From positions 26,288,001-26,352,000 of the forward strand of contig NW_027361788.1 of NCBI RefSeq assembly GCF_039654945.1: a stretch of DNA of 64,000 nt. The letters run 5' to 3'. Under the pieces are notes generated by a model. It was given only the letters and a program-made list of their open reading frames with translations, searched no databases and was not told the DNA's origin. Origin of the DNA: Dendrobates tinctorius. Its lineage: Eukaryota. Within the stretch, counting starts at the first letter, position 1, and each line of letters starts with the position of its first letter. Positions 9,082-60,531 of this stretch are shown piece by piece. The position numbers were made by a program, and so were the translations under genes.

Positions 9082-9868
9082 TGTGGTGTAATGACCGCTG
9101 TGTCCACTAGGGGGCGCTGTGCGGATGTCCTAGGAGAAAGGATGAATGGCAGAACCATGAAGGACCGTTATGTATCTCAAGGTGGGTGGCCTTGAGATGG
9201 AGACTGATGCATGTATTGACCAGCAGTAATACTGCTGAGGTGTCGTTTCTACGTATTAGGGAGAAGTCTCCAGGTAACTAGAGAGTTGGGAGGGCCTGGT
9301 TACCTACAAACCCACCCAAGGGATGTGTCTGGAAACGCCTGTAGTAAAGATGTGTGAGTGCTTGAAGGACCTGTGATGAGGTCATAGCCATGTGACCCGG
9401 TGGGCGTGGCTACAGACCATATAAGGCGGCCAGGGTAGGTCACATAGGGTGAATGCTGGGACCTGGTTGGTCCAGTGTGGAAGGTCCCGCTAGGAGAAGC
9501 ATCTCCTGGCTAACAGCCTGTGGAGTGGCTGTGTGTCATGGCTGCCAGCGTCTGAGTGTCCCAGAGAAGAGAGTGGATGTCTGCAGCGTGGGGAAACAGC
9601 CATTGGGGAACCCTGATGTGGGTGAGATAATGATGAGGCTGAAGAGCCTGAGTATGGACATTGAGTAACCTGTGTGACCACAGGCTTAACCAGAGTAAAG
9701 CACTATAATGGACGCTATGCTGTAATGCTGTTTATGTTGCTTCTATGGGTTTATGAAGGAGGAATAAACCTCATGGACTGTGTTATGCCTTATGGAAACC
9801 TGTGCCGGACGTGATTATTCGCTGCCAAGCGAGTGTTCCCCAACCCTGAACTACAGCGCTACCTCACA
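9082..9868 (+). repeat. 5' LTR (787 bp)
   Basis: TG...CA ends; TATA-like CATATAAG ~9418; AATAAA ~9763; differs from the 3' LTR by about 6 substitutions and one 14-bp indel (counted by eye). Confidence 0.95.
9104..9118 (+). promoter_or_regulatory. CTCF consensus motif in 5' LTR (second copy at 13134-13148)
   Basis: CCACTAGGGGGCGCT matches the CTCF core CCASYAGRKGGCRS. Confidence 0.6.
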
Positions 9869-9870
9869 TA

Positions 9871-9881
9871 TGGTGGAGAAT
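9871..9881 (+). promoter_or_regulatory. Primer-binding site, tRNA-Ala type
   Basis: TGGTGGAGAAT 2 nt after the LTR is complementary to the tRNA-Ala 3' end (...ATTCTCCACCA). Confidence 0.75.
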
Positions 9882-10727
9882 TGCAAAGGGCAAATTTGTA
9901 GCCTTATTGCTAGGGGCAACGGAAAAGGACTGCAAAGTTTCGGTTGCTAAGGGCAACGGGTTCCAAAGGCACATGGTGCAGTGAGACTGTGGATTGTGAT
10001 AGGGTGCCTCTGCGGATAAGAGGTACCCGAGGACCTGTGTGGCCGACACAAGTAACGGACAGGTGTTCGTTGTTGTACTGACCTGGGTCAGTGAGCAAGG
10101 TCCTGGAGGGTCAGTGTTGGGAGGTTCTGGGAGAAGAATCGGATCCCTGGAACACGTGGTATGACCTTGGACATGGTGAGGCGTGAATGTTGGGCAGTCT
10201 CAGGCGGAGACGGATGTCCTGAATAGCACCCGCTGAGCCCTGAACCTGGTGAGGTCGGTGTGTTGGGAAACCCTGGGAGGAGGGTCGGCTCCCTGAATAG
10301 CACCCGGTGTGTTGGACGGTCTCAGGCAGAGATGGTACGTCCCGAATAGCACACAGCCAGGACACGCAAGTTTTTTTTGTGTGGTGGTTTTTTTTTTCTC
10401 AACTCAGCTTGCGGTGGCTCAGTGGGAGTCACGAAGGTGACAAGCGGCTTCCTGTAACTCGGCGGGGTTAGGAAGGTGACAAGCGGCTTCCTGTAACTTG
10501 GCGGGGTTACGAAGGGGACAAGCGGCTTCCAGTGGATCGGCGGGTCCACGAAGACGGCGCAGCAGGAGCTGCAGTGACACCAGCAGCTGGGTGTGAACAG
10601 CAGCCGGTGGTGCTGGTGATCGATGACAGCAGGAGCTGTGGTGGTGCCAGCAAGGACTTGTGTGGTATCGTAAGAGACATAAACTGTACTGTGTGAACTG
10701 TGGCATAAGAAGTTCTGCAGAACAGAC

Positions 10728-11462
10728 ATGGGGAAATCCCGAAAGGGGGTGGTGGCCCAAATTGGAGTGGTAACCCAAAAAGGGGTGAAGTCCCAGGAGG
10801 GGGCGGCGACCCAAATTTGGAAGGTCCAGGAAATAGCAGCACTGGTTGCCTCAGTGGGTATGTCTGGGGAACCGCAGTGTGGGTGTATGTCTTGGGAGGA
10901 ATGCGGTGTGTCTTTTCCTGATGATGACGAGCCACAGGTGTGTACCGTGATGCTGCACCGGGAAGGAGTCCCTGGTAGGCTGGACTCAAAGAGTCAGGTG
11001 ACTCTGACAGGAACTCCGCTCGTTTTAGCTCTGACCGAGAAAAACGTCAGAGTTTGCTGCGTCCACGGGGTCATTGTGAATTATAAGGTAGACAGAGTCC
11101 TGATTGAGATGACAAAGGGGGACTGCCAAGGTGGTAGTATGTCACCAAACCTAGTGCATACCTTTGAGAGGCGCCGGGACTTTGTCATGTTTAAAGATGT
11201 AGGGCTAGCAGACACTGAGACGCTGACGCCTCCTAACGTGGACAGGCCAGAAATAGGGGCGACCGGAGAAAGAATTGCGTCAGACGAATTTACTGACCTG
11301 ACGTCACCTGAAGGGTACCACAGTGTGAATGAGAATGGTGTGGTAAACAAAAAGAGCGGAGCTGACACACAGATAGAGAGTGCCCTGGGGGTTCACCGTA
11401 CGATGTGGTGTGACTGTGACGTGTTGTTGCCAGTAGCCACCACTAGGACAGAATCAATCTAG
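10728..11462 (+). pseudogene. Degenerate gag zinc-knuckle and aspartic protease remnant
   Basis: VCTVMLHREGVPGRLDSKSQVTL...VRVCCVHG...Y...VLIE...PNLVH...RRDFVMF follows the Gmr1-type protease pattern (LDSG.S.VTL, CVHG, GRDF) with DSG changed to DSK. Confidence 0.6.
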
Positions 11463-11466
11463 TGCT

Positions 11467-11961
11467 GTGCTGACTGAAACTCATGACAGGACTGAAGGTA
11501 ACCTAATCGAGAAGATAACGGGAGTAGAAACACGGTCAGAGGGTGACTGGAGGGTTCACTCGACTGACGGGACTGACTCAGCGGTACCTTTTGACAATAT
11601 AATCAAAGAATTAGTGGTGCGACACGTGCTGGCCAAAAGAGAACAAGATCAGGAGATACAGTTAATAAAAGAGACAGTGGAAGAACATGTCAAACGAGAA
11701 GGAATCTTGAGACAATTGGCCGAGCACAAGGTGGAGGGGCTCGAGAAAGAAGTCTTGGAGCTCAGAGGTCACCTGTCCACCTGGCAAAGTGTGTACAAGG
11801 GCCTTAAAGAAGAGATGGAAGAACTTAGAGGAGTAGTAAAAGGTCTTCTGCGGGAGAAGAAGTTGGACGAGGACTTACCGTGGGTGAGCGCGAGTGCCAA
11901 CAAGACGGAACTGCCAGTATCCATCGTGGCCAAGGGTCATGAAGAGATCAAAGTGTGTTAA
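11467..11961 (+). CDS. Coiled-coil ORF of unknown origin, same frame as the downstream KH ORF
   Basis: Heptad-rich E/K/L segment (LRQLAEHKVEGLEKEVLELRGHL...YKGLKEEMEELRGVVKGLL); only one TAA (11959-11961) separates it from the next ORF. Confidence 0.45.
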   Translation: MLTETHDRTEGNLIEKITGVETRSEGDWRVHSTDGTDSAVPFDNIIKELVVRHVLAKREQDQEIQLIKETVEEHVKREGILRQLAEHKVEGLEKEVLELRGHLSTWQSVYKGLKEEMEELRGVVKGLLREKKLDEDLPWVSASANKTELPVSIVAKGHEEIKVC

Positions 11962-12012
11962 GTTTGTAAGTTAAGAACTGAAGAAGACAGTCACCCGGTT
12001 GGGTCAACTGTA

Positions 12013-13140
12013 GTGAAGGAAGTGTCCGTGGTAAAGCCAAAGCCTTCGGTCCAGGAAGAGAGCAAGACCACGACCTTCAAATCTATGATTGAGGTACCCG
12101 AAGACATGCAAGAAGCCTGTGTGGAGGAAGGTGTACATGAGGCTTTCAAAGAGGCAGTCAAAGCGTGTGAGGTGCACTGGGCACCTGAGACTCTGCAGTT
12201 GGTGGTAATATCAGCCAGAGAAGATACATCAAACCGAGTAGCTGTCCTGAGGGAAATGCATTTACAATGTCTCCACGCCAAACAGCTGGTCAGGCGGAGT
12301 AATATGAAGGCTGCTCGTCGCCTAGAGTTGGCGAAGGAGGCTATGGATCGGCTGAGTTTGCGGAAAGGTGTGGTCCCGATACCCAAAGCTCTGATTGGAA
12401 GAATCATTGGAAGGTCCGGGAAGGTAATGCAAGACCTTGTGAATATCTCCGGTGTGGTGAGGGCGAGGGCGAGGATCCCTCCTGATGATGAAGACCTGGT
12501 ATCCAGTGAAATGGATAGAGTTCCCATCATGGTGGTTGACTCCGTGGAGAGCTTGAGAAACTTTCGGATGCTCGTGGAGTACCTGCAAGAAATTGAGCAG
12601 TTGAGGCTGGACCATCGACGAATCAATAAAGAAATACGGGATACCAGGTGGCAGCCGCCTCCAACCCAAGATGTAAGGACCCGATCGGTTCCTCCAAGAA
12701 GTGACATGGCAGATGATAGAAGAGTGTCAGCACGGGGTAGTTCGACTGGCAGGATGACGTTGAAAGACCATAGTTCCTGTGAGACGCTGAATGGGTCAGA
12801 CTTTGGCCAGACAGTAGGTCCGATTAGAACTGATGACCGTACCAACCGGGAGAGCCGGTCAGTGAGAGAAAGGTCAGGTGACGAAGCGCACTATAAGAGT
12901 GTGGTGACTAAACAGTGTCTGATGACGCAGACAAATCGGGACTGGAGGATCAAAGACAATGACCAGTATTATGACCACTGGGAGCGGGGGAGGCCGTATG
13001 ACAAATGGAGACGGTTCTCTCGACCCAGGGGGCAAGGTGTAGTGAGTGCCCGGTCTCGAGAACCGTTATGCTGTGTGTTCAACCCCACAGGTTTGAACAT
13101 AGGGGGAGGTATGTGGTGTAATGACCGCTGTGTCCACTAG
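12013..13140 (+). CDS. Retro-captured FXR1/FMR1-family KH-domain protein (KH0-KH2-NES plus R/S/D-rich tail)
   Basis: [15 protein letters not shown]...[11 protein letters not shown]...PETLQL...EMHL vs FXR1 FKCTVDVPEDLREAC...HKDFKKAVGAC...PETTQL...DMHL; [28 protein letters not shown] vs [38 protein letters not shown] vs YLKEVEQLRM. Start codon is GTG, so the true start is uncertain. Confidence 0.85.
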   Translation: [375 protein letters not shown]

Positions 13141-13884
13141 GGGGCGCTGTGCGGATGTCCTAGGAGAAAGGATGAATGGCAGAACCATGAAGGACCGTTA
13201 TGTATCTCAAGGTGGGTGGCCTTGAGATGGAGACTGATGCATGTATTGACCAGCAGTAATACTGCTGAGGTGTCATTTCTACGTATTAGGGAGAAGTCTC
13301 CAGGTAACTAGAGAGTTGGGAGGGCCTGGTTACCTACAAACCCACCCAAGGGATGTGTCTGGAAACGCCTGTAGTAAAGATGTGTGAGTGCTTGAAGGAC
13401 CTGTGATGAGGTCATAGCCATGTGACCCGATGGGCGTGGCTACAGACCATATAAGGCGGCCAGGGTAGGTCACATAGGGTGAATGCTGGGACCTGGTTGG
13501 TCCAGTGTGGAAGGTCCCGCTAGGAGAAGCATCTCCTGGCTAACAGCCTGTGGAGTGGCTGTGTGTCATGGCTGCCAGCGTCTGAGTGTCCCAGAGAAGA
13601 GAGTGGATGTCTGCAGCGTGGGGAAACCCTGAAGTGGGTGAGATAATGATGAGGCTGAAGAGCCTGAGTATGGACATTGAGTAACCTGTGTGACCACAGG
13701 CTTAACCAGAGTAAAGCACTATAATGGACGCTATGCTGTAATGCTGTTTATGTTGCTTCTATGGGTTTATGAAGGAGGAATAAACCGCATGGACTGTGTT
13801 ATGCTTTATGGAAACCTGTGCCGGACGTGATTATTCGCTACCAAGCGAGTGTTCCCCAACCCTGAACTACAGCGCTACCTCACA
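13112..13884 (+). repeat. 3' LTR (773 bp)
   Basis: Direct repeat of 9082-9868, preceded by the polypurine tract at 13101-13109. Confidence 0.95.
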
Positions 13885-21705: not shown

Positions 21706-24700
21706 ACACATTGCTAAAAAAAATAAAGGCAACACTAAAATAGCACATCTTAGACATCATTACATAGTGGAATACGTTTAGAACAATAAAACTGATAAAA
21801 ATAATCAATGTAAATCAAAATTAATATCCCATGGAGGTCTGGATTTGGAATGATTCTCAAAGTCAAAGTGAAAAATCAAATTACAGGCTGATCCAACTTC
21901 ATCGGAAATGCCTCAAGACAAGGAAATGATGCTCAGTAGTGTGTGTGGCCTTTACGTGTCTGTATGACCTCCTTTCAATGCCTGTACACATTCCTGTGGA
22001 GTGGGCGGATGTGCTCCTTAGACTGGGATTACACTTGCGAGAAACTCGCACGAGTCTCATACCTCAATATCCGACACTGCCACCAGCACTCGGGACCGGA
22101 GTGTGCGGCAGCATGTATTTCTATGCAGCCGCACACTCCGGTCCTGAGTGCTGGCGGCAGTGCCGGATATTGAGGTGCGAGACTCGAGCGAGTTTCTCGC
22201 AAGTGTGATTCCGGCCTTAGGGTTCTCCTCCCAGATCTGGATTATAGCATCTGTCAACTCCTGGACTGTGGTACAACATAGTGTTAGTGAATGGAACAAG
22301 ACATGATGTCTCAGATGCGCTTGATTGGATTCAAGTCTGGGGAACGGGCAGGCTAGTCCATAGCATCAATGCATTCATCATACAGGAACTGCTGAAACAC
22401 TTCAGCCATGAGGCCTAGTATTGCCATGCATTAGAAGGAACCCAGGGCCTACTGAACCTGTACAGTCATATGTTAAAGTTTGGGCACCCCTATTAATGTT
22501 AACCTTTTTTCTTTATAACAATTTTGGTTTTTGCAACAGCTATTTCAGTTTCATATATCTAATAACTGATGGACTCAGTTATATTTCTAGATTCAAATGA
22601 GGTTTATTGTACTAACAGAAAATGTGCAATCTGCATTTAAACAAAATTTGACCGGTGCAAAAGTATGGGCACCCTTATCATTTTCTGGATTTTAACACTC
22701 CTAACTACTTTTTACTGACTTCCTGAAGCACTAAATTGGTTTTGTAACCTCATTGAGCTTTGAACTTCATAGCATCATGGGCTCCTCAAAACAACTCTCA
22801 AATGATCTGAAAACAAAGATTATTCAACATAGCTTTTCAGGGGAAGGATACAAAAAGTTGTCTCAGAGATTTAACCTGTCAGTTTCCACTGTGAGGAACA
22901 TAGTAAGGAAATGGAAGAACACAGGTACAGTTCTTGTTAAGCCCAGAAGTGGCAGGCCAAGAAAAATATCAGAAAGGCAGGGAAGAAGAATGGTGAGAAC
23001 AGTCAAGGACAATCCACAGACCACCTCCAAAGACCTGCAGCATCATCTTGCTGCAGATGGTGTCACTGTGCATCGGTCAACAATACAGTGCACTTTGCAC
23101 AAGGAGAAGCTGTATGGGAGAGTGATGCGAAAGAAGCCGTTTCTGCAAGCACGCCAGAAACAGAGTCAACTGAGGTATGCAAAAGCACATTTGGACAAGC
23201 CAGTTACATTTTGGAAGAAGGTCCTGTGGACTGATGAAACAAAGATTGAGTTGTTTGGTCATACAAAAAGGTGTTATGCATGGATGCTAAAAAACACAGC
23301 ATTCCAAGAAAAACACTTGCTACCTACAGTAAAATTTGGTGGAGGTTCCATCATGCTTTGGGGCTGTGTGGCCAATGCCGGCACTGGGAATCTTGTTAAA
23401 GTTGAGGGTCGCATGGATTCAACTCACTATCAGCAGATTCTTGACAATAATGTGCAAGAATCAGTGACGAAGTTGAAGTTACTCAGGGGGATGGATATTG
23501 CAGCAAGACAATTATCCAAAACACCGCTCCAAATCTACTCAGGCATTCATGCAGAGGAACAATTACAATGTTCTGGAATGGCCATCCCAGTGCCCAGACC
23601 TGAATATCATTGAACATCTGTGGGATGATTTGAAGTGGGCTGTCCATGCTCGGCGACCATCAAACTTAACTGAACTGGAATTGTTTTGTAAACAGGAATG
23701 GTAACAAATACTTTCATCCAGGATCCAGGAACTCATTAAAAGCTACAGGAAGCGACTAGAGGCTGTTATTTTTGCAAAAGGAGGATCTACGAAATATTAA
23801 TGTCACTTTAATGTTGAGGTGCCTATACTTTTGCACCGGTCAAATTTTGTTTAAATGCAGATTGCACCTTTTAAGTTAGTACAATAAACCTCAATTGAAA
23901 CCAGAAATATAACTGAGTCCATCAGTTATTAGATATATGAAACTGAAATAGCTGTTGCAAAAACCAAAATTGTTATAAAGAAAAAAGGTTAACATTAATA
24001 GGGGTGCCCAAACTTTAACATATGACTGTATATGGTCTCACAATAGGTCTGAGGATCTCATCCCAATAGGTAATGGCAGTCAGGTTACCTCTGGCTAGCA
24101 CATGGAAGGCTGTGCAGCCCTCCAAATAAATGCCTCCCCACACCATTACTGGCCCATTGCCAAACCAGTCATAATGGAGAATGTTGCAGGCAGCAAAACA
24201 TTCTCCACGACGTCTCCAGACTCTGTCACATGTGTTTGGCGTGAACATGCTCTCATTCGTGAAGAGTGCAGGCCGCTAATGCCGAATCTGCCAATCTTGG
24301 TATTCTCTGTCAAATGCCAATCGCTGTGCAAGGGTGTTGGGCTGTAAGCACAATACCCACTTGTGGACGCCCTCATACCACCCTCATGGAGTCAGTTTCT
24401 GACAGGTTGAGCAGACACATGGATGTCAGTGGCCTGCTGGAAATCATTTTGCAAGTCTTTGGTACTGCTCCTCCTTGCGCAAAGTAGGAAGTAGTGAGCC
24501 TGCTGCTGAGTTGTTGCCCTCCTATGGTCCCCTCCACGTCTCCTGGTGTACTGGTCTGTCTACTGGTAGCTGCTCCATGCTCTGGACAGTGTGCTGACAG
24601 ACACAGCTACTCTTCTTGCCCCAGTTCGCATTGATGTGCCATCTTAAATGAGCTGCACTACCTGAGCAACTTCTGTGGTTTGTAGATATCGCCTAATGCT

Positions 24701-27122: not shown

Positions 27123-28659
27123 CTAGCTATGAACCCGTTCTACGCCCGGGTGGCGGGCATTTTTATTGCTATATGGGCTCCCATCCTGGTATGTGCTGCA
27201 CCCCTCATCCCTATACTGGTATGTATTGTACCCTTACCCCCCAAATCCTGGTATGCATGGTACCCCCTAATCCATATACTGGTATTCATGGCTCCCTCAC
27301 CCCCCAATCCTGGTATGCATGGCACCCCCTCACCCCTATCGCGATATGCATAGTGCCCTCACCCCCCAATCCTGGTATGCATGGTCCTCTCAACCCCTCA
27401 ATCCTGGTATGCATGGTCCTCTCACCCCCCAATCCTGGTATGCATGGTCCTCTCACCCCCCTATCCTGGTATGCATGGTCCCCTCACCCCCCTATCCTGG
27501 TATGCATGGTGCCCTCACTCCCCAATTCTGGTATGCATGGTCCCTTCACCCACTTATCCTGGTATGCATGGTCCTCTCACCCCCCAATCCTGGTATGCAT
27601 GGTCCTCTCACCCCCCAATCCTGGTATGCATGGTCCTCTCACCCCCCAATCCTGGTATGCATGGCCCCCTCAACCCCCTATCCTGGTATGCATGGCCCCC
27701 TCAACCCCCTATCCTGGTATGCATGGTCCCCTCACCACCCAATCCTGGTATGCATGGTCCCCTCACCCCCCAATCCTGGTATGCATGGTCCTGTCACCTT
27801 CCAATCCTGGTATGCATGGTCCTCTCACCCCCCTATCCTGGTATGCATGGTCCTCTCACCCCCCTATCCTGGTATGCATGGTCCCCTCATCCCCCTATCC
27901 TGGTATGCATGGTCCCCTCACCCCCTTTTGTGGTATGCATGGTCCCCTCACCCCCCTATCCTGGTATGCATGGTCCCCTCACCCCCTTTTGTGGTATGCA
28001 TGGTCCCCTCACCCCCAATCCTAGTATGCATGGTCCCCTCACCCCCCCTATCCTTGTATGCATGGTGCCCTCACCCCCCAATCCTGATATGCATGGTCCC
28101 CTCACCCCCCTTTCATGGTATGCATGGTCCCCTCACCCCTTTTTGTGGTATACATGGTCCCCTCACCCCTCAAAACTGATATGAATGGTCCCCCTCACCC
28201 CTATTAAACTGCACACATTAAAAAAAACAAAACATTTATACTCACCTTTCTTCCCTATGTCCAGCACTGTCCTGTCTGGGCGTGTTGTGGTGCCGGACTC
28301 GGTGCCTGCGCAGTCCTGGCTTTCCGCCGCCATGTTCTTGAAGACACACTGCAGTGTGTGTTCAACAAGATGGCGGCGGTAAGCGCGGACTGTGCAGGCG
28401 CTGATTCCAGCGCTACAACACGCCCACTCCAGACACCTGAAGACGCAAGACCCCGCCGGCAACAGCAACACCGGGTTCGGTAAGGTGTTGCTGAGATCGC
28501 GGTATGCGTTCAGTGCTTACACATTGCCGCGATCTCCTGGGGGTCTGTGTCACTCTGTGGGGGATGCGTCACTCTGGGTCCAGACTGCGCAGGCGCGTCG
28601 TGCTTGCGCAGTCTATAGAGGCTTCAGACAGAGTGACGCTTAGCCCATTATATTATAGA
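27123..28659 (-). mobile_element. Non-autonomous Helitron
   Basis: Minus strand begins TCTATAATATAA and ends CCCGGGCGTAGAACGGG-TTCATAG-CTAG (GC hairpin + CTAG); inserted between A and T without TSD; removal restores transposase codons KAI|CLQNRK. Confidence 0.9.
27175..28200. repeat. ~32-bp minisatellite (about 30 copies) inside the Helitron
   Basis: Unit ATCCTGGTATGCATGGTCCYCTCACCCCCCW. Confidence 0.95.
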
Positions 28660-31600
28660 TGTCTCCAAAACAGGAAATGCACAACAAAACAAATGAAGAA
28701 TGAAAGGGAGAAAACTGGAGTCAATGTCTGTGACTGAACTGTAAGAAACCGCATAAAGGAAATGAGATTTACAGACAGAAAAGCTAAACGAAAGCCATCA
28801 TTAACACCTAAACAGAAAAAAACAATGTTACAATGGGCTAAGGAAAAGCAATCGTGGACTGTGGATGACTGGATGAAAGTCATATTCATAGATGAATCGT
28901 GGATATGCATTGGGCAAGGTGATGATGCTGGAACTTTTGTTTGGTGCCGCTCCAATGAGATTTATAAAGATAACTGCCTGAAGAGATCATACAAATTTCC
29001 ACAGTCATTGATGATATGGGGCTGCATGTCAGGTAAAGGCACTGGGGAGATGGCTGTCATTGCATCTTCAATAAATACACAAGTTTATGTTGATATTTTG
29101 GACACTTTTCTTATCCCATTAATTGAAAGGATGTTTGGGGATAATGAAATCATTTTTCAAGATGATAATGCATCCTGCCATAGAGCAAAAACTGTGAAAA
29201 TATTCCTAAAAAAAAGACACATAAGGTCAATGTCATGGCCTGCAAATAGTCCGGATCTCAATCCAATTGAAAATCTTTGGTGGAAGTTGAAGAAAATGGT
29301 CCATGACAAGGCTCCAACCTGCAAAGCTGATCTGGCAACAGCAATCAGAGAAAGTTGGAGTCAGATTGATGAAGAGTACTGTTTGACACTCATTAAGTCC
29401 ATGCCTCAGAGACTGCAAGCTGTTATAAAAGCCAGAGGTGGTGCAACAATATACTAGTGATGTATTGGAGTGTTTTTTTGTTGGTTTGTTTTTCATGATT
29501 CCATAATTTTTTCCTCAGAATTGAGTGATTCCATAATTTTTTCCCTATGTTTGGTTTAAAAAAGTAACCATTACTGACTACCACATTTTCTGTTCTTGAT
29601 TTCTTTTAGTACTTCTTAAAGCCAGAAAGTCGCCATTTGAATTAACTTTAGTTTTGTGCCATGTCTGTGATCTGCTTCTTTTCTACAAAATTAAACAACT
29701 GAATGAACATCCTCCAAGGCCGGTGATCCATAATTTTTGCCAGGGCTTGTATAGGCATAAATTAAATATATGGGATCAAATAACTACAAATTGGCAAGGG
29801 GCATATGTATTCACCCCTTTTGACATGAAGCCCCTACAAAATTTTTGTGCAATCAATTCCCTTCATAAGTCACATACTTAGTGACAGATCGTCACTTATA
29901 TACACATTATCTTTTCTGAAAGGCCACAGAGGCTGCAACACCATTAACAAGAGGCACCACTAACCAAATACCATGAAGACCAAGGAGATGTCCAAACAAG
30001 CCAGGGACAAAGTTGTTGAAAGTACCAATCAGGGTTAGGCTATAAAAAAATATCCCAATCTCTGATGATCCCGGGGCACCATCAAATCTATTATCATCAA
30101 ATGGAAAGAACATGGTACCACAACAAATCTGCCAAGAGAGGGCGCTCACCAAAACTCTCATCCTGGGCAAGGGGGGCATTAATCAGAGAGGAAGCAAAGA
30201 GACCAAAGGTAACCCTGAAGGAGCTGCAACATTCCCAAGCAAAGTCTGGAGTATCTGTCCATACGACCACAATAAGCCACACACTGCATATAGGTGGCCT
30301 TTATGGAAGAGTGGGCAGAAAACACCAAGGCTACTTACCAGTAGCCAGTTTTTCTGGAACCCATGAGAGCACACCTTAGAGAGGGATCTGCCCAGCACGG
30401 ATAGGAAACCTACTGAAATAAAAGGGTGGTACCTCTCCCTTGCTTCAGTTGGGATATAGAGCATGAGAGGCCCTCCGGTTAGTTTACACGGAAAACCAAC
30501 ACCACATTATATCAACAAAAGACACCCAAACTATAGTGCACACCCAAGAGGTGAGAAGGGGGGGAATATATGGGTGCTGTCATGGGTTCTGGAAAAAACG
30601 GATACCGGTAAGTAACCTTTGTGTTTTCCCTTCACCCATGACAACACACCTGAATGATTTTTGGAGAAATGAAAACAACTTAGGGAGGGACTACCACTTG
30701 CAGCACCCTTCTACCAAAGGTTAGGTTTGCCGAGGAAGACAGATTCAGTCTGTAGTGCTTAAAAGAAAGTAGATGGTGAGGCCAAGGTAGCGGCCTTACA
30801 GATCTGATCAATCGATACCTCCGCCTTTTCTGCCCAGGAATTGGCCATGGCTCTGGTGGAGTGTGCCTTGATGCCTTCAGGAACCTGAGCGCCACTCGCA
30901 CAGTAGGATAAGCTAATGGGCTCCCTGATCCATCTGGCAAGGGTACCTTTAGATACCCCATAACCCTTTCTGCTACCCTGGAAGGCTATGACAAGGGACT
31001 GATCTTTCCTCCATTGACTAGTCATGGACATGTACTCTAAGATGGACCTCCTCACGTCTAAAGTATGGAATTTTTCCTCCCCTGGATTTTTAGGGATATC
31101 GCAGAGCGAGGGTAAGGTGATCTCCTGGCTACTATGGAATTTAAGACTTACTTTGGGGAGATAAGCTACGGGCTGATGTTAAGGCCACTAGCAACACCGT
31201 TTTGGGCGTGAGGAATTTCACAGATAACTCCTGTAAGGGCTTCAATGGTCCCCTAGTTAGCGCCTCTAAAACTAGGTTCAGGTCCTATGGAGGAATTTTC
31301 AGAACTATAACTGGTCTAGATCAACTACAGGATTTAATAAACCGGGACACCCATCTATTGGATGCTAGGTTGCAATTATACAAGGCACCCAAGGCCGACA
31401 ACTGTACCTTGAGAGTATTAGTTGCTAACCCCAGTTGCAATCCCGACTGTAGAAATTCTAGAATGGCCCCTACCAGAGCTGCATCCTCCAAGGGCTGCCC
31501 TAAAAACCCCAGGAATTTCTTCCATGTTCTACCATAGTTCTTTGATGTAATCGGCTTCTTACTTTTCTACAAGGTGGAGACTAGCCCTGGTGAGAATCCC

Positions 31601-46598: not shown

Positions 46599-47815
46599 TC
46601 ACTGGCCACTTTATTAGGTACACCTGTCCAACTGTGTGTTAAGACTTAATTTCTAATCAGCCAATCACATGGCGGCAACTCAGTGCATTTAGGCATGTAG
46701 ACATGGTCAAGACAATCTCCTGCAGTTCAAACCGAGCATCAGTATGGGGAAGAAAGGTGATTTGAGTGCCTTTGAACGTGGCATGATTGTTGGTGCCAGA
46801 AGGGCTGGTCTGAGAATTTCAGAAACTGCTGATCTACTGGGATTTTCACGCACAACCATCTCTAGGGTTTACAGAGAATGGTCCGAAAAAAAAAAAAATC
46901 CAGTGAGCGGCAGTTCTGTGGCCGGAAATGCCATGTTGATGCCAGAGGTCAGAGGAGAATGGGCAGACTGGTTCGAGCTGATAGAAAGGCAACAGTGACT
47001 CAAATTGCCACCCGTTACAACCAAGGTAGGCAGAAGAGCATCTCTGAACGCACAGTGCGTCGAACTTTGAGGCAGATGGGCTACAGCAGCAGAAGACCAC
47101 ACTGGGTACCACTCCTCTCAGCTAAGAACAGGAAACTGAGGCTAAAATTTGCACAAGCTCATCGAAATTGGACAGTAGAAGATTGTAAAAACGTTGCCTG
47201 GTCTGATGAGTCTCGATTTCTGCTGCGACATTCGGATGGTAGGGTCAGAATTTGGCGTAAACAACCTGAAAGCATGGATCCATCCTGCCTTGTATCAACG
47301 GTTCAGGCTGGTGGTGGTGGTGTCATGGTGTGGGGAATTTTTTCTGGGCACTCTTTGGGCCCCTTGGTACCAATTGAGCATCGTTGCAACGCCACAGCCT
47401 ACCTGAGTATTGTTGCTGACCATGTCCATCCCTTTATGACCACAATGTACCCAACATCTGATGGCTACTTTCAGCAGGATAATGCGCCATGTCATAAAGC
47501 TCGAATCATCTCAGATTGGTTTCTTGAACATGACAATGAGTTTACTGTACTGAAATGGCCTCCTCAGTCACCAGATCTCAATCCAATAGAGCATCTTTGG
47601 GATGTGGTGGAACGGGAGATTCGCATCAGGGATGTGCAGCCGACAAATCTGCGCCAACTGTGTGATGCCATCATGTCAATATGGTCCAAAATCTCTGAGG
47701 AATGCTTCCAGCACCTTGTTGAATCTCTGCCACGAAGAATTGAGGCAGTTCTGAAGGCAAAAGGGGGTCCAACCCCTTACTAGCATGGTGTACCTAATAA
47801 AGTGGCCAGTGAGTG
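46596..47815 (+). mobile_element. DD36E (Incomer-type) Tc1 transposon, copy A, 1-nt frameshift in an A-run at ~46890
   Basis: 29-bp TIR CACTCACTGGCCACTTTATTAGGTACACC, TA flanks, 1220 bp. Confidence 0.93.
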
Positions 47816-50532: not shown

Positions 50533-51750
50533 TCACTGGCCACTTTATTAGGTACACCTGTCCAACTGTGTGTTAAGACTTAATTTCTAATCAGCCAATC
50601 ACATGGCGGCAACTCAGTGCATTTAGGCATGTAGACATGGTCAAGACAATCTCCTGCAGTTCAAACCGAGCATCAGTATGGGGAAGAAAGGTGATTTGAG
50701 TGCCTTTGAACGTGGCATGATTGTTGGTGCCAGAAGGGCTGGTCTGAGAATTTCAGAAACTGCTGATCTACTGGGATTTTCACGGACAACCATCTCTAGG
50801 GTTTACAGAGAATGGTCCGAAAAAGAAAAAAAATCCAGTGAGCGGCAGTTCTGTGGCCGGAAATGCCATGTTGATGCCAGAGGTCAGAGGAGAATGGGCA
50901 GACTGGTTCGAGCTGATAGAAAGGCAACAGTGACTCAAATTGCCACCCGTTACAACCAAGGTAGGCAGAAGAGCATCTCTGAACGCACAGTGCGTCGAAC
51001 TTTGAGGCAGATGGGCTACAGCAGCAGAAGACCACACTGGGTACCACTCCTCTCAGCTAAGAACAGGAAACTGAGGCTACAATTTGCACAAGCTCATCGA
51101 AATTGGACAGTAGAAGATTGGAAAAACGTTGCCTGGTCTGATGAGTCTCGATTTCTGCTGCGACATTCGGATGGTAGGGTCAGAATTTGGCGTAAACAAC
51201 ATGAAAGCATGGATCCATCCTGCCTTGTATCAACGGTTCAGGCTGGTGGTGGTGGTGTCATGGTGTGGGGAATTTTTTCTGGGCACTCTTTGGGCCCCTT
51301 GGTACCAATTGAGCATCGTTGCAACGCCACAGCCTACCTGAGTATTGTTGCTGACCATGTCCATCCCTTTATGACCACAATGTACCCAACATCTGATGGC
51401 TACTTTCAGCAGGATAATGCGCCATGTCATAAAGCTCGAATCATCTCAGATTGGTTTCTTGAACATGACAATGAGTTTACTGTACTCAAATGGCCTCCTC
51501 AGTCACCAGATCTCAATCCAATAGAGCATCTTTGGGATGTGGTGGAACGGGAGATTCGCATCAGGGATGTGCAGCCGACAAATCTGCGCCAACTGTGTGA
51601 TGCCATCATGTCAATATGGTCCAAAATCTCTGAGGAATGCTTCCAGCACCTTGTTGAATCTCTGCCACGAAGAATTGAGGCAGTTCTGAAGGCAAAAGGG
51701 GGTCCAACCCCTTACTAGCATGGTGTACCTAATAAAGTGGCCAGTGAGTG
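50530..51750 (+). mobile_element. DD36E (Incomer-type) Tc1 transposon, copy B
   Basis: Same 29-bp TIRs; about 6 differences from copy A over 1.22 kb. Confidence 0.94.
50678..51718 (+). CDS. Intact 346-aa DD36E transposase
   Basis: WSDESRF; QQD-NAPCH...SPDLNPIE with 36 residues between D2 and E. Confidence 0.94.
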
Positions 51751-54779: not shown

Positions 54780-56885
54780 ACATCAGCGATATGGATCTTA
54801 CCCTGATATCAGCTGCCAACTATATGGTTCTTACCCTGGTACCAGCTGTCAGCGCTATTGTTCTTACCCTGGTACCAGCTGTCAGCGATATTGTTCTTAC
54901 CCTGGTACCAGCTGTCAGCGATATTGTTCTTACCCTGATACCAGCTGCCATTTACACAGTTCTCACCCTAGTATCAGCTGCCAGTGTTACGGTTCTTACC
55001 CTGATATCAGCTGCCAGTTACATAGTTCTCACCGCCGGTGCTGTAGTTCTTACCCCGATATCAGCTGCCAGCGATATGGTTCTTACCCTGATATCAGCTG
55101 CCAGCAATACGGTTCATATCCTGATATCAGCTGCCAGTGATACGGTTCTTATCCTGATATCAGCTGCCAGTGATACGGTTCTTACCCTGATATCAGCTGC
55201 CAGCGAAACGGTTCTTACCCTGATATCAGCTGCCAGTGTTACGGTTCTTACCCTGATATCAGCTGCCAGTTACATAGTTCTCACCGCCGGTGCTGTAGTT
55301 CTTACCCCGATATCTGCTGCCAGCGATATGGTTCTTATCCTGATATCAGCTGCCAGCGATACGGTTCTTACCCTGATATCAGCTGCCAGCAATACGGTTC
55401 ATATCCTGATATCAGCTGCCAGTGATACGGTTCTTACCCTGATATCAGCTGCCAGCGAAACGGTTCTTACCCTGATATCAGCTGCCAGTGTTACGGTTCT
55501 TACCCTGATATCAGCTGCCAGTTACATAGTTCTCACCGCCGGTGCTGTAGTTCTTACCCCGATATCTGCTGCCAGCGATATGGTTCTTATCCTGATATCA
55601 GCTGCCAGCGATACGGTTCTTACCCTGATATCAGCTGCCAGCAATACGGTTCATATCCTGATATCAGCTGCCAGCTATACGGTTCTTACCCTGATATCAG
55701 CTGCCAGCGATACGGTTGTTACCCTGATATCAGCTTCCAGCGAAACGGTTCTTACCCTGATATCAGCTGCCAGCGATACGGTTCTTATCCTGATATCTGC
55801 TTCCACCGATACGGTTCTTATCCTGATATCCACTTCCACCGATACGGTTCTTACCCCGATATCAGCTGCCAGCGATACGGTTCTTACCCTGATATCCGCT
55901 TCCAGCGATATGGTTCTTACCCTCATATCCGCTTCCAGCGATACGGTTCTTATCCTGATATCAGCTGCCAGCGATACGGTTCTTACCCCGATATCAGCTG
56001 CCAGCGATACGGTTCTTACCCCGATATCCGCTTCCAGCGATACGGTTCTTACCCTCATATCCGCTTCCAGCGATACAGTTCTTATCCTGATATCAGCTGC
56101 CAGCGATACAGTTCTTACCCTGATATCAGCTGCCAGCGATATGGTTCTTACCCTAATATCCGCTTCCAGCGATACGGTTCTTATCCTGATATCAGCTGCC
56201 AGCGATACGGTTCTCATCCTGATATCAGCTGCCAGCGATACGGTTCTTACCCGGATATCAGCTGCCAGCGATACGGTTCTTATCCTGATATCAGCTGCCA
56301 GCGATACGGTTCTTATCCTGATAACAGCTGCCAGCGATACGGTTCTTACCCTGATATCCGCTTCCAGCGATACAGTTCTTATCCTGATATCAGCTGCCAG
56401 CGATACGGTTCTTACCCTGATATCAGCTGCCAGCGATACGGTTCTTATCCTGATATCAGCTGCCAGCGATACGGTTCTCATCCTGATATCAGCTGCCAGC
56501 GATACGGTTCATATCCTGATATCAGCTGCCAGTGATACGGTTCTTACCCTGATATCAGCTGCCAGCGAAACGGTTCTGATATCAGCTGCCAGTTACATAG
56601 TTCTCACCGCCGGTGCTGTAGTTCTTACCCCGATATCTGCTGCCAGCGATATGGTTCTTATCCTGATATCAGCTGCCAGCGATACGGTTCTTACCCCGAT
56701 ATCAGCTGCCAGCGATACGGTTCTTACCCTGATATCAGCTGCCAGCGATACGGTTCTTACCCTCATATGGGCAGCACGGTGGCTCAGTGGTTAGCGCTGC
56801 AGCCTTGCAGCGCTGGAGTCCTGGGTTCGAATCCCACCAAGGACAACATCTGCAAGGAGTTTGTATGTTCTCCCCGTGTTTGCGT

Positions 56886-56916
<31 letters not shown>

Positions 56917-59900
56917 ACACTCCAAAGACATACTGATAGGGAATATAGATTGTGAGCCCCACCAGGGACAGTGATGAAAATGTGTGCAAACTGTAAAGCG
57001 CTGCGGAATATGTTAGCGCTATATAAAAATAAAGATTATTATTATTATTATATCCGCTTCCAGAGATACGGTTCTTATCCTGATATCAGCTGCCAGCGAT
57101 ACGGTTCTTACCCCGATATCAGCTGCCAGCGATACGGTTCTTACCCTCATATCCGCTTCCAGCGATACGGTTCTTATCCTGATATCAGCTGCCACCGATA
57201 CGGTTCTTACCCCGATATCAGCTGCCAGCGATACGGTTCTTACCCCGATATCCGCTTCCAGCGATACGGTTCTTACCCTCATATCTGCTTCCAGCGATAC
57301 AGTTCTTATCCTGATATCAGCTGTCAGCGATACAGTTCTTACCCTGATATCAGCTGCCAGCGATATGGTTCTTACCCTAATATCCGCTTCCAGCGATTCG
57401 GTTCTTATCCTGATATCAGCTGCCAGCGATACGGTTCTCATCCTGATATCAGCTGCCAGCGATACGGTTCTTACCCGGATATCAGCTGCCAGCGATACGG
57501 TTCTTATCCTGATAACAGCTGCCAGCGATACGGTTCTTACCCTGATATCAGCTTCCAGCGATACGGTTCTTACCCGGATATCAGCTGCCAGCGATACGGT
57601 TCTTACCCCGATATCAGCTGCCAGCGATATGGTTCTTACCCTAATATCCGCTTCCAGCGATTCGGTTCTTATCCTGATATCAGCTGCCAGCGATACGGTT
57701 CTCATCCTGATATCAGCTGCCAGCGATACGGTTCTTACCCGGATATCAGCTGCCAGCGATACGGTTCTTATCCTGATATCAGCTGCCAGCGATACGGTTC
57801 TTATCCTGATAACAGCTGCCAGCGATACGGTTCTTACCCTGATATCAGCTTCCAGCGATACGGTTCTTACCCGGATATCAGCTTCCAGCGATACGGTTCT
57901 TACCCTGATATCCGCTTCCAGCGATACGGTTCTTACCCTCATATCCGCTTCCAGCGATACGGTTCTTATCCTGATATCAGCTGCCAGTGATACGGTTCTT
58001 ACCCCGATATCAGCTGCCAGCGATACGGTTCTTACCCCGATATCCGCTTCCAGCGATACGGTTCTTACCCTCATATCTGCTTCCAGCGATACAGTTCTTA
58101 TCCTGATATCAGCTGCCAGCGATACAGTTCTTACCCTGATATCAGCTGCCAGCGATATGGTTCTTACCCGGATATCAGCTGCCAGCGATATAGTTCTTAT
58201 CCGGATATCAGCTGCCAGCGATATAGTTCTTATCCGGATATCAGCTGCCAGCGATATAGTTCTTATCCTGATATCAGCTGCCAGCGATTCGGTTCTTATC
58301 CTGATATCAGCTGCCAGCGATACGGTTCTCATCCTGATATCAGCTGCCAGCGATACGGTTCTTACCCGGATATCAGCTGCCAGCGATACGGTTCTTATCC
58401 TGATATCAGCTGCCAGCGATACGGTTCTTATCCTGATAACAGCTGCCAGCGATACGGTTCTTACCCTGATATCAGCTTCCAGCGATACGGTTCTTACCCT
58501 GATATCAGCTGCCAGCGATACGGTTCTTACCCCGATATCAGCTGCCAGCGATACAGTTCTTACCCCGATATCCGCTTCCAGCGATACAGTTCTTATCCTG
58601 ATATCAGCTGCCAGCGATACGGTTCTCATCCTGATATCAGCTGCCAGCGATACGGTTCTTACCCGGATATCAGCTGCCAGCGATACGGTTCTTATCCTGA
58701 TATCAGCTGCCAGCGATACGGTTCTTATCCTGATAACAGCTGCCAGCGATACGGTTCTTACCCTGATATCAGCTTCCAGCGATACGGTTCTTACCCGGAT
58801 ATCAGCTGCCAGCGATACGGTTCTTACCCCGATATCAGCTGCCAGCGATACAGTTCTTACCCCGATATCCGCTTCCAGCGATACAGTTCTTATCCTGATA
58901 TCAGCTGCCAGCGATACGGTTCTTATTCTGATATCAGCTGCCAGCGATACAGTTCTTACCCTGATATCCGCTTCCAGCGATACAGTTCTTATCCTGATAT
59001 CAGCTGCCAGCGATACGGTTCTTACCCTGATATCAGCTGCCAGCGATACGGTTCTTATCCTGATATCAGCTGCCAGCGATACGGTTCTTATCCTGATATC
59101 AGCTGCCAGCGATACGGTTCTTATCCTGATATCAGCTGCCAGCGATACGGTTCTCATCCTGATATCAGCTGCCAGCGATATGGTTCTCATCCTGATATCA
59201 GCTGCCAGCAATACGGTTCTTATCCTGATATCAGCTGCCAGCGATACGGTTTTTACCCTATCAGTTGCCAGCGATACGGTTCTTATCCTGATATCAGCTG
59301 CCAGCGATACAGTTCTTACCCTGATATCCGCTTCCAGCGATATGGTTCTTACCCTGATATCCGCTGCCAGCGATACGGTTCTTACCCGGATATCAGCTGC
59401 CAGCGATATGGTTCTTACCCTGATATCAGCTGCAAGCGATACGGTTCTTACCCTGATTTCCGTTTTCAGCGATATGGTTCTTATCCTGATATCAGCTGCC
59501 AGCGATACGATTCTTAACCTGATGTCCGCTTCCAGCGATACGGTTCTTATCCCGATATCTGCCAGCGATACGGTTCTTATCCTGATATCAGCTGCCAGCG
59601 ATACGGTTCTTACCCTGATATCCGCTTCCAGCGATATGGTTCTTACCCTGATATCCGCTTTCAGCGATACGGTTCTTACCCGGATATCAGCTGCCAGCGA
59701 TACGGTTCTTACCCTGATATCAGCTGCAAGCGATACGGTTCTTACCCTGATATCCGCTTTCAGCGATACGGTTCTTATCCTGATATCAGCTGCTAGCGAT
59801 ACGGTTCTTATCCTGATATTAGCTGCCAGCGATACAGTTCTTACCCTGATATCCGCTTCCAGCGATATGGTTCTTACCCTGATATCCGCTTTCAGCGATA

Positions 59901-60320
59901 TGGTTCTTACCCGGATATCAGCTGCCAGCGATATGGTTCTTACCCTGATATCCGCTTTCAGCGATACGGTTCTTATCCTGATATCAGCTGCTAGCGATAC
60001 GGTTCTTATCCTGATATCAGCTGCCATCGATACGGTTCTTACCCTGATATCAGCTGCCAGCGATACGGTTCTTACCCTGATATCAGCTGCCAGCAATACG
60101 GTTCTTACCCTGATATCAGCTGCCAGCAATACGGTTCTTATCCTGATATCAGCTGCCAGTGATACGGTTCTTACCCTGATATCAGCTGCCAGCAATACGG
60201 TTCTTATCCTGATATCAGCTGCCAGTGATACGGTTCTTACCCTGATATCAGCTGCCAGCGATACAGTTGTTACCCATGTACCAGTTGTCATGATGTTGAT
60301 CTTACCCTGGTATCAGCTGC
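54780..60320. repeat. 33-bp minisatellite, about 160 copies, interrupted by a SINE
   Basis: Unit CAGCGATACGGTTCTTACCCTGATATCAGCTGC. Confidence 0.97.
56769..57049 (+). mobile_element. tRNA-derived V-SINE with L2-like 3' tail
   Basis: A box TGGCTCAGTGG, B box GGTTCGAATCC, V-domain GGGTTTCCTCCGGGCACTCCGGTTTCCTCCCACA, (ATT)n tail, ATAT duplicated at the flanks. Confidence 0.9.
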
Positions 60321-60531
60321 GAGGGATGGGGAGGGTGAGTCACCTACGTAGAATTCTATGCTTGGGACTCTCTCCCTCATGTTTTATCACAGCACTAAAG
60401 AGGTTAACCTGAGATCTGACTTTTCTCTGATCCTTGCAGTTGTAAATTAAGCATGGCTTTGTATTACACCATCATATATGCTGGCCACAGTGTACAATGT
60501 CACGAAGGGCATCAAGTGGAAGACTGCCTCA

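Follow-up and report, generated by a model that had tools for sequence, protein, structure and literature searches.

A pol-less LTR element of poison frogs carries a shortened fragment of the host gene fxr1

Pieces captured by LTR elements are usually passengers, and the known non-autonomous Ty3/Gypsy derivatives include the LARD and TRIM types and the Gmr1-like elements of fish and amphibians. The element described here, from the poison frog Dendrobates tinctorius, shares with these derivatives LTRs of the TG..CA form, has primer-site-like and polypurine motifs where such an element should have them and, in those copies where one is legible, a 4-bp target duplication, and like them has no reverse transcriptase (RT) or integrase and a remnant of a retroviral-type protease. 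It differs in keeping a long, selected ORF, which in the youngest subfamily spans about 1,100 aa. Superfamilies are told apart by pol domain order and RT phylogeny, and of pol the element offers a protease look-alike only. Gene capture by LTR elements is already known: the accessible part of PMC6431247 describes LTR retrotransposons with captured ORFs after pol or in place of env, among them the planarian Burro elements. In those elements too, host-like sequence lies between the LTRs and has been amplified, but the frog capture replaces pol, stands in frame with the element ORF and occurs in a vertebrate; its editing went step by step, intermediates survive, and constraint on it can be measured.

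The captured piece comes from FXR1. Element and vertebrate FXR1 have in common KH0, coiled coil 1, a KH2 with its GxxG loop and a hydrophobic I304-equivalent, coiled coil 2 and, as remnants, C-terminal exons, and the element branches beside FXR1, apart from FMR1 and FXR2. Unlike FXR1, it has no Tudor/Agenet domain, KH1 core or RGG box, has mostly lost the NES anchor, and carries the piece behind protease-like and coiled-coil sequence, intron-less, in more than 1,500 copies. The in-frame loss of KH1 recalls the rat that carries the Fmr1 delta-exon-8 allele and whose FMRP lacks KH1; according to the accessible part of PMC6458915, 57 aa are lost there by skipping and the protein stands at 20-42% of normal, whereas the element loses 60 aa by internal deletion, and Tudor and RGG as well. 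The literature searched (with Repbase, Dfam and subscription journals outside its scope) holds no report of an FXR1-bearing LTR family in frogs, nor does FXR appear in the main text, as far as accessible and supplements aside, of the D. tinctorius genome preprint (10.1101/2023.11.06.565769), the Oophaga genome paper (PMC6278860) or a survey of anuran TEs (PMC12822217).

The 4.8-kb pol-less element with its FXR1 fragment occupies 9082-13884 (+) of the window, that is, of the whole 64,000-nucleotide stretch of D. tinctorius DNA analysed. Its parts are these:

9082..9868, + strand: 5' LTR, TG...CA, paired with the 3' LTR
9871..9881, + strand: primer-binding-site-like stretch beginning TGG, 2 nt past the 5' LTR
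10728..11462, + strand: 5' piece of the long ORF, with short N-terminal repeats and a degenerate domain like a retroviral-type aspartic protease; frame break at its end
11449..11961, + strand: middle piece of the long ORF, coiled-coil-like (sub-threshold coiled-coil family matches only), ending at a stop
11962-13140, + strand: FXR-bearing frame of 392 aa, matching KH0 and then KH2
12064..12318, + strand: captured FXR1 KH0 (end of exon 5 to exon 7), continuing into the coiled-coil-1 helix; rmsd 0.9 A over 74 residues to 4qvz
12328..12339, + strand: deletion junction with 180 nt missing; three codons of the exon-8 start (12328-12336), then exon 9 from codon 7
12355..12579, + strand: KH2 domain, with its GRSG loop at 12409-12420 and the I304-equivalent Met at 12427-12429
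12580..12645, + strand: helix after KH2 (FXR1 coiled coil 2, the FMRP NES region), with the third NES anchor changed to Arg at 12616-12618
12760..12900, + strand: eroded remnant of an FXR1 C-terminal exon (LKD...DQTV region), weak in this copy and recognised by eye; the RGG box that should precede it is gone
13101..13109, + strand: polypurine tract, directly before the 3' LTR
13112..13884, + strand: 3' LTR, TG...CA; the stop of the FXR-bearing ORF (13138-13140) falls within it

The primer-binding-site-like stretch may be tRNA-Ala-like; a pattern search for a matching tRNA gave 0 matches, and the window itself contains no tRNA. In 11 of 41 elements an exact 4-bp target duplication is legible; for most of the remainder the alignment ran past the ends or stopped short of them. 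That of the window copy is mismatched (ACTA/ACAT). No Pfam match to RT, RNase H or integrase was found in the window frames or in the element-filling frames of 1112 and 894 aa. The interior is a single long ORF consisting of short repeats, one or two degenerate protease-like domains, a coiled-coil-like stretch and then the FXR piece. In a Ranitomeya relative (P0004), the stretch homologous to the protease-like domain resembles RVP and retroviral aspartyl proteases with scores of 0.93-0.95, and the usual catalytic motif is retained there. The element leader contains a 39-bp unit repeated 2.9 times (10431-10544). Elsewhere the window carries Tc1/mariner transposase ORFs at 91-1113, 22777-23613, 28762-29457, 46878-47783 and 50678-51718, two of them full-length (340 and 346 aa), and tandem arrays of 33-bp and 31-bp units (54784-60327 and 27209-28201) with spurious long ORFs on both strands.

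In the window copy the long ORF upstream of the FXR piece is broken by a frameshift and stops, so that a full protein from this copy is unlikely. Within its KH2, 6 nt are inserted near 12459 in this copy alone (1 of 36 subfamily copies), and 12 nt are missing near 12580. Its LTRs differ at 6 of 773 aligned columns, an age of about 1.5 My at a rate taken from the accessible part of 10.1101/2023.11.06.565769, and none of the 55 other elements compared is more than 92% like it in the interior. That LTRs 0.8% apart flank a broken ORF, and that the 12-nt deletion is common to 9 of the 36 subfamily copies, suggests that damaged copies can still be mobilised.

Exact junction motifs found at least 1,369 copies of the window's subfamily (W) and at least 159 of a younger one (Y), and reversed-pattern controls found 0. 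A protein search with a 192-aa query gave 6,362 first-look candidates, and all 150 that were scored had at least 81% identity. The proteins nearest to the window's FXR frame are those of D. tinctorius, and KH1-less relatives also occur in Ranitomeya imitator and R. variabilis. The NCBI annotation presents many element copies as genes, some of them named FXR1-like. Among 20 Y copies chosen for long frames (L088-L107), the open frame measures 1,074-1,231 aa, and the two LTRs of a pair, which 19 of them show, have 0-7 differences. These same copies have two distinct primer-site sequences just 3' of the 5' LTR despite their near-identical LTRs, are inserted into TA/CA-rich simple repeats, and carry a duplicated protease-like domain in the 5' half of the ORF, with the usual catalytic motif in neither duplicate. 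Between L091 and L124/L125 the synonymous distance is about 0.5 in the 5' ORF but reaches 1.4-1.7 in the FXR core, a contrast suggestive of recombination among the subfamilies. No helper (autonomous) element came to light when long proteins were searched with the protease region, a weak search, and a motif scan of the family loci turned up four RT-like frames that have no established tie to the family. The element is covered whole in four of five run contig sets, mostly at 80-95% identity; that these represent RNA is a guess and is not counted as evidence.

The FXR-bearing frame matches FMRP KH0 (Pfam PF17904, E=7e-15; PDB 4qw2, E=8e-15) and KH2 (PDB 2qnd, E=1e-10). An earlier note, written from the DNA letters of the window, had described a captured FXR module with no Agenet/Tudor domain or RGG box, an intact KH2 loop and a hydrophobic residue at the I304 position, and in these respects it was right. 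Neither the window frame nor the element proteins match Agenet/Tudor (a genome-wide search with the Tudor model PF18336 matched nothing anywhere, missing the host genes too); the 392-aa frame contains no RGG tripeptide; the loop reads GRSG (GGAAGGTCCGGG); and the I304-equivalent is Met. I compared 92 KH1-less copies picked by protein similarity (36 W, 18 Y and 38 older). Both loop glycines are present in 85 of the 92, with variable residues between them, the I304-equivalent is Met in 88, and the KH1 core is absent from all 92 copies of this main clade. In 60 further copies, which are the first 60 of the 1,369 W motif matches and were not chosen by protein similarity, both loop glycines occur in 50 and are no better kept than other glycines; within the subfamily, loop glycines and other glycines changed 8% each.

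The same note had held that the NES was kept, and here the helix must be separated from the signal. FMRP residues 423-YLKEVDQLRLERLQI-437 form the NES, and the accessible part of PMC5358978 reports that an engineered version of it depends on its last two anchors. Where the host has LRLERLQI the window has LRLDHRRI: the helix is kept, and the third hydrophobic anchor, a leucine for CRM1, is lost from the window and from both young subfamilies (present in 2/36 W, 0/18 Y and 18/38 older copies). To judge from the sequence, the region is better read as FXR1 coiled coil 2, with the export signal mostly lost. Dimerisation of FXR1 and its mRNA network require both coiled coils, and single prolines break it (PMC10635158, accessible part). 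No proline occurs in either coiled-coil helix among the 54 W and Y copies, and the corresponding figures for the older copies are 2/38 and 4/38.

For an unbroken copy AlphaFold gives a mean pLDDT of 92.9, with a single helix (residues 53-95) spanning the junction; the remainder of KH1's last helix, from exon 9, is predicted to be fused to the helix that follows KH0. The predicted KH0 superposes on 4qvz with Z 15.4 and an rmsd of 1.1 A over 78 residues, and KH2 reaches Z about 11 against KH domains. The KH2 fold is predicted in an unbroken copy, at pLDDT 70-98 over residues 111-150, whereas the same stretch of the window copy, which holds the private 6-nt insertion, stands at 53-61. Part of the confidence in both models is inherited, because the alignments behind them include true FXR proteins. 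Ubiquitin matches to the element protein proved to be repeat-summed noise.

The selective regime was read from pairwise comparison and from shared and private variants. In the FXR core, pairwise dN/dS is 0.18-0.22 between Y and two W copies, 0.32 between Y and the window and 0.16 between Y and the host, values that are rough between subfamilies because dS is 1.1-2.0, near saturation. With CpG columns removed, dN/dS of shared against private variants is 0.23 against 0.73 for the 36 W copies (p=8e-4), 0.28 against 1.25 for the 38 older copies (p=4e-11) and 0.28 against 1.05 for the 60 motif-picked copies (p=3e-7). Region by frame, 24 tests were made in W. The FXR core, read in its own frame, gives a clearly low value (0.25, p=0.001), the coiled-coil stretch is marginal (0.54, p=0.046) and the protease-like part shows no signal (0.75, p=0.47); nor did these tests find a purifying signal in the spacer/linker, leader, tail, LTR or other frames, and two deviate upward (core frame +2, leader frame 0). 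Within the core, constraint is strongest on KH0 with coiled coil 1 (shared dN/dS 0.18), and KH2 stands at 0.42 (p=0.002). The Y subfamily has no purifying signal: its pairwise value is 0.96 on 13 changes, its shared variants are 7 non-synonymous and 0 synonymous (p=0.15), and the N202-equivalent has become Lys in 18 of 18 copies. Purifying selection after capture, which the earlier note had suggested, is thus supported by the substitution pattern; it is specific to the FXR core and is not seen in variation within the youngest subfamily.

I put a probability of roughly 55% on the account as a whole, namely that the window holds a decayed copy of an element that captured fxr1 once, lost KH1 through a 180-nt deletion and kept the fragment for RNA binding and for docking on FXR1. 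Constraint confined to the host-derived core, on lineages that continued to transpose, is the trace expected of a cis-acting protein, and an FXR1 piece under purifying selection makes it likely that the element uses the module for copying its own RNA. Cis action of the protein by way of KH2 and both FXR1 coiled coils is, taken by itself, a tentative proposal to which I would give slightly less than even odds. On this proposal KH2 would bind the RNA of the element itself, and the two helices would dock the protein on FXR1 or on another molecule of its own kind; the RNA would thereby be stabilised, localised or packaged by a helper element, an autonomous element would supply the enzymes, and lineages with a sound module would leave more copies. 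A predicted complex with frog FXR1 scores 0.45 against 0.23 for the best of three controls, with runs agreeing on at least 86% of contacts and a partner pLDDT of at least 78. Scores of 0.60 or less are seen in only 5 of 78 solved pairs, yet in all four passing mismatches, in a calibration that did not extend to close relatives of a partner; a pass in the range of 0.45 is more often wrong than right unless the pairing was likely beforehand, and the predicted complex accordingly lends docking weak support. The more ambitious statement, that an LTR parasite turned an FXR1 module into a functional protein of its own, which took the place of pol, docks on the FXR1 network and has its RNA favoured or shielded, and so reached thousands of copies across poison frogs, is possible rather than probable.

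The same history could have produced a protein that works in trans, as a decoy poisoning the FXR1/FMRP complexes that help to silence transposons. The two helices by which FXR1 dimerises are retained and Tudor, KH1 and RGG are gone, KH0 with coiled coil 1 is the part under the strongest constraint, and the predicted FXR1 complex fits a decoy as weakly as it fits cis action; moreover, Drosophila dFmr1 works with Aubergine and Piwi in transposon silencing (PMC5454977, accessible part). This link to silencing is, however, fly evidence. A suppressor acting in trans would aid every copy equally and be weakly selected in any one lineage, whereas constraint is seen in many sublineages, and KH2 is constrained too. 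A decoy is therefore unlikely. It is less probable still that selection acts on the host, with a few domesticated source loci making a useful FXR1-like protein and the copies being by-products. The annotation of copies as FXR1-like genes would agree with this, as would constraint on the host-derived part and none on the protease-like part, but there is turnover among the subfamilies, whose synonymous differences are close to saturation, a conserved locus is not known, and the constraint on shared variants runs through many lineages and not a single locus.

The ordinary expectation for a captured piece, that it is a passenger, would attribute the low dN/dS to a need for an open frame, to constraint on the RNA or to the choice of copies. 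In its favour, the FXR core is open in only 29 of the 52 motif-picked copies that are fully covered, the youngest subfamily shows no constraint, and broken copies have apparently been mobilised. The signal, however, lies at the level of amino acids, is specific to frame and region, survives the removal of CpG sites and recurs in copies not picked by protein similarity, and both KH folds are still predicted despite near-saturated synonymous sites, all of which makes a passenger very improbable.

The history itself, to which cis action and decoy would equally belong, is far firmer than the function. I mapped the host genes fxr1 (C60), fmr1 (C133) and fxr2 (C2); exons 5-11 of fxr1, presumably so numbered after the FMR1 exon scheme, measure 149, 94, 117, 171, 79, 110 and 87 nt. 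Older copies carry the fxr1 exons contiguously, in order and intron-less from the end of exon 5 through a C-terminal exon (matched at the DNA level in L129, L131 and L144), so what the element captured is a spliced fxr1 mRNA, probably without the Tudor domains from the outset. A KH0 tree of 65 columns places all 26 element sequences in one clade (96/90) adjoining FXR1, the 19 KH1-less sequences forming one clade within the tree (95/95); single-outgroup DNA trees recover the KH1-less and KH1-bearing clades without ordering them. FMR1 and FXR2 are rejected as donors by the KH0 tree and the C-terminal exon match, and the capture of an FXR module that the earlier note had proposed is borne out with fxr1 as its source. 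It is likely that the fragment was captured once and then shortened within the element. In the tree frog Hyla sarda two proteins, P0067 (XP_056378927) and P0041 (XP_056378965), contain FMR1-type KH0-KH1-KH2 pieces without Tudor whose start lies close to that of the poison-frog capture. In one protein a long coiled-coil region precedes the piece, and in the other an RT-like tail follows it; these may represent a second, independent capture, of FMR1, with the same domain span.

Between the exon-7 end and the first Gly in the KH2 loop lie 261 nt in host fxr1 and 81 nt in the window, so the gap is exactly 60 codons (180 nt), in agreement with the drop of about 60 residues first noticed. This span is 81 nt in 87 of the 92 KH1-less copies, five being shorter, and in 58 of the 60 motif-picked copies, for which the motif is blind to an exon-skipped form. 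KH1 was removed in frame as proposed, except that most of its last helix, encoded by exon 9, stays. The breakpoints lie off the exon 7/8 and 8/9 junctions, the first of them 9 nt into exon 8 and the second 18 nt into exon 9: in 89 of the 92 copies the 9 nt past exon 7 are closer to the exon-8 start of a KH1-bearing copy than to the exon-9 alternative, which places the deletion from within exon 8 to within exon 9. The match averages 6.8/9 against 2.6/9 in the older copies; W copies compared with the host alone tie at 3.9. Many older copies have an element-specific His codon within the retained exon-8 start. Host fxr1 has CAAAA at both ends of the deletion, which would fit a template switch.

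An exon-8 search matched 7 of 9 candidates: all three host genes, plus four element-like copies with KH1; a separate search gave a fifth such copy in the D. tinctorius genome, and two Anomaloglossus proteins also have KH1 and share derived residues with the element proteins. The KH1 GxxG is destroyed in all 7 of these relatives, which argues that the deletion of KH1 followed its decay and took place within the element. In the five D. tinctorius copies the second Gly is gone from both KH loops, and RNA binding would then be unneeded in that branch. Four of the five were fetched with 10 kb for context: L128 and L129 have the same N-terminal repeats and protease-like domain as the main family, and L128, L130 and L131 have a piece of LTR at 78-81%. 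A KH1-less element is nested in the old KH1-bearing copy L130 (4630-8305), splitting it, an arrangement that fits the proposed order. On KH0 alone (65 columns) an AU test does not reject a grouping of KH1-less copies with host FXR1 (p=0.35), so the order of events is argued from the junction and from the element parts that both kinds of copy share. Very probably, then, RT template switching put a piece of fxr1 mRNA, from the end of exon 5 onward and without Tudor, in the place of pol; the KH1 GxxG loop and the RGG box would have decayed within the element; and a second switch, at a short repeat common to exons 8 and 9, would have removed the 60 codons and joined helix to helix. The earlier suggestion of selection for a single canonical KH protein is plausible.

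Its companion suggestion, that the missing stretch is exon 8 and that the element captured an exon-8-skipped fxr1 transcript or later recombined with one, can be dismissed as highly improbable: the gap does overlap exon 8 almost exactly, the AU test on KH0 would allow it, and such a skip is in frame and yields protein in the engineered rat Fmr1 allele, where exon 8 likewise encodes 57 aa (PMC6458915, accessible part), but exon 8 of D. tinctorius is 171 nt and not 180, its first 9 nt are retained and the first 18 nt of exon 9 lost, the 90-nt span of a skip occurs in 0 of the 92 copies, and KH1-bearing members of the family exist.

In this high-copy vertebrate element the strongest constraint falls on a module of host RNA granules, whose trimming can be traced through surviving intermediates, from capture without Tudor through a dead KH1 loop and the deletion of KH1 to the loss of the NES anchor. 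Users of poison-frog annotations should be warned that many of the 'FXR1-like' gene models there represent copies of a transposon. Finally, the family offers a natural test of which parts of FXR1 suffice for entry into the FXR1 network, and of whether, in the germlines of vertebrates, FXR proteins hold retrotransposons back or help them, a link that is so far best described in flies.
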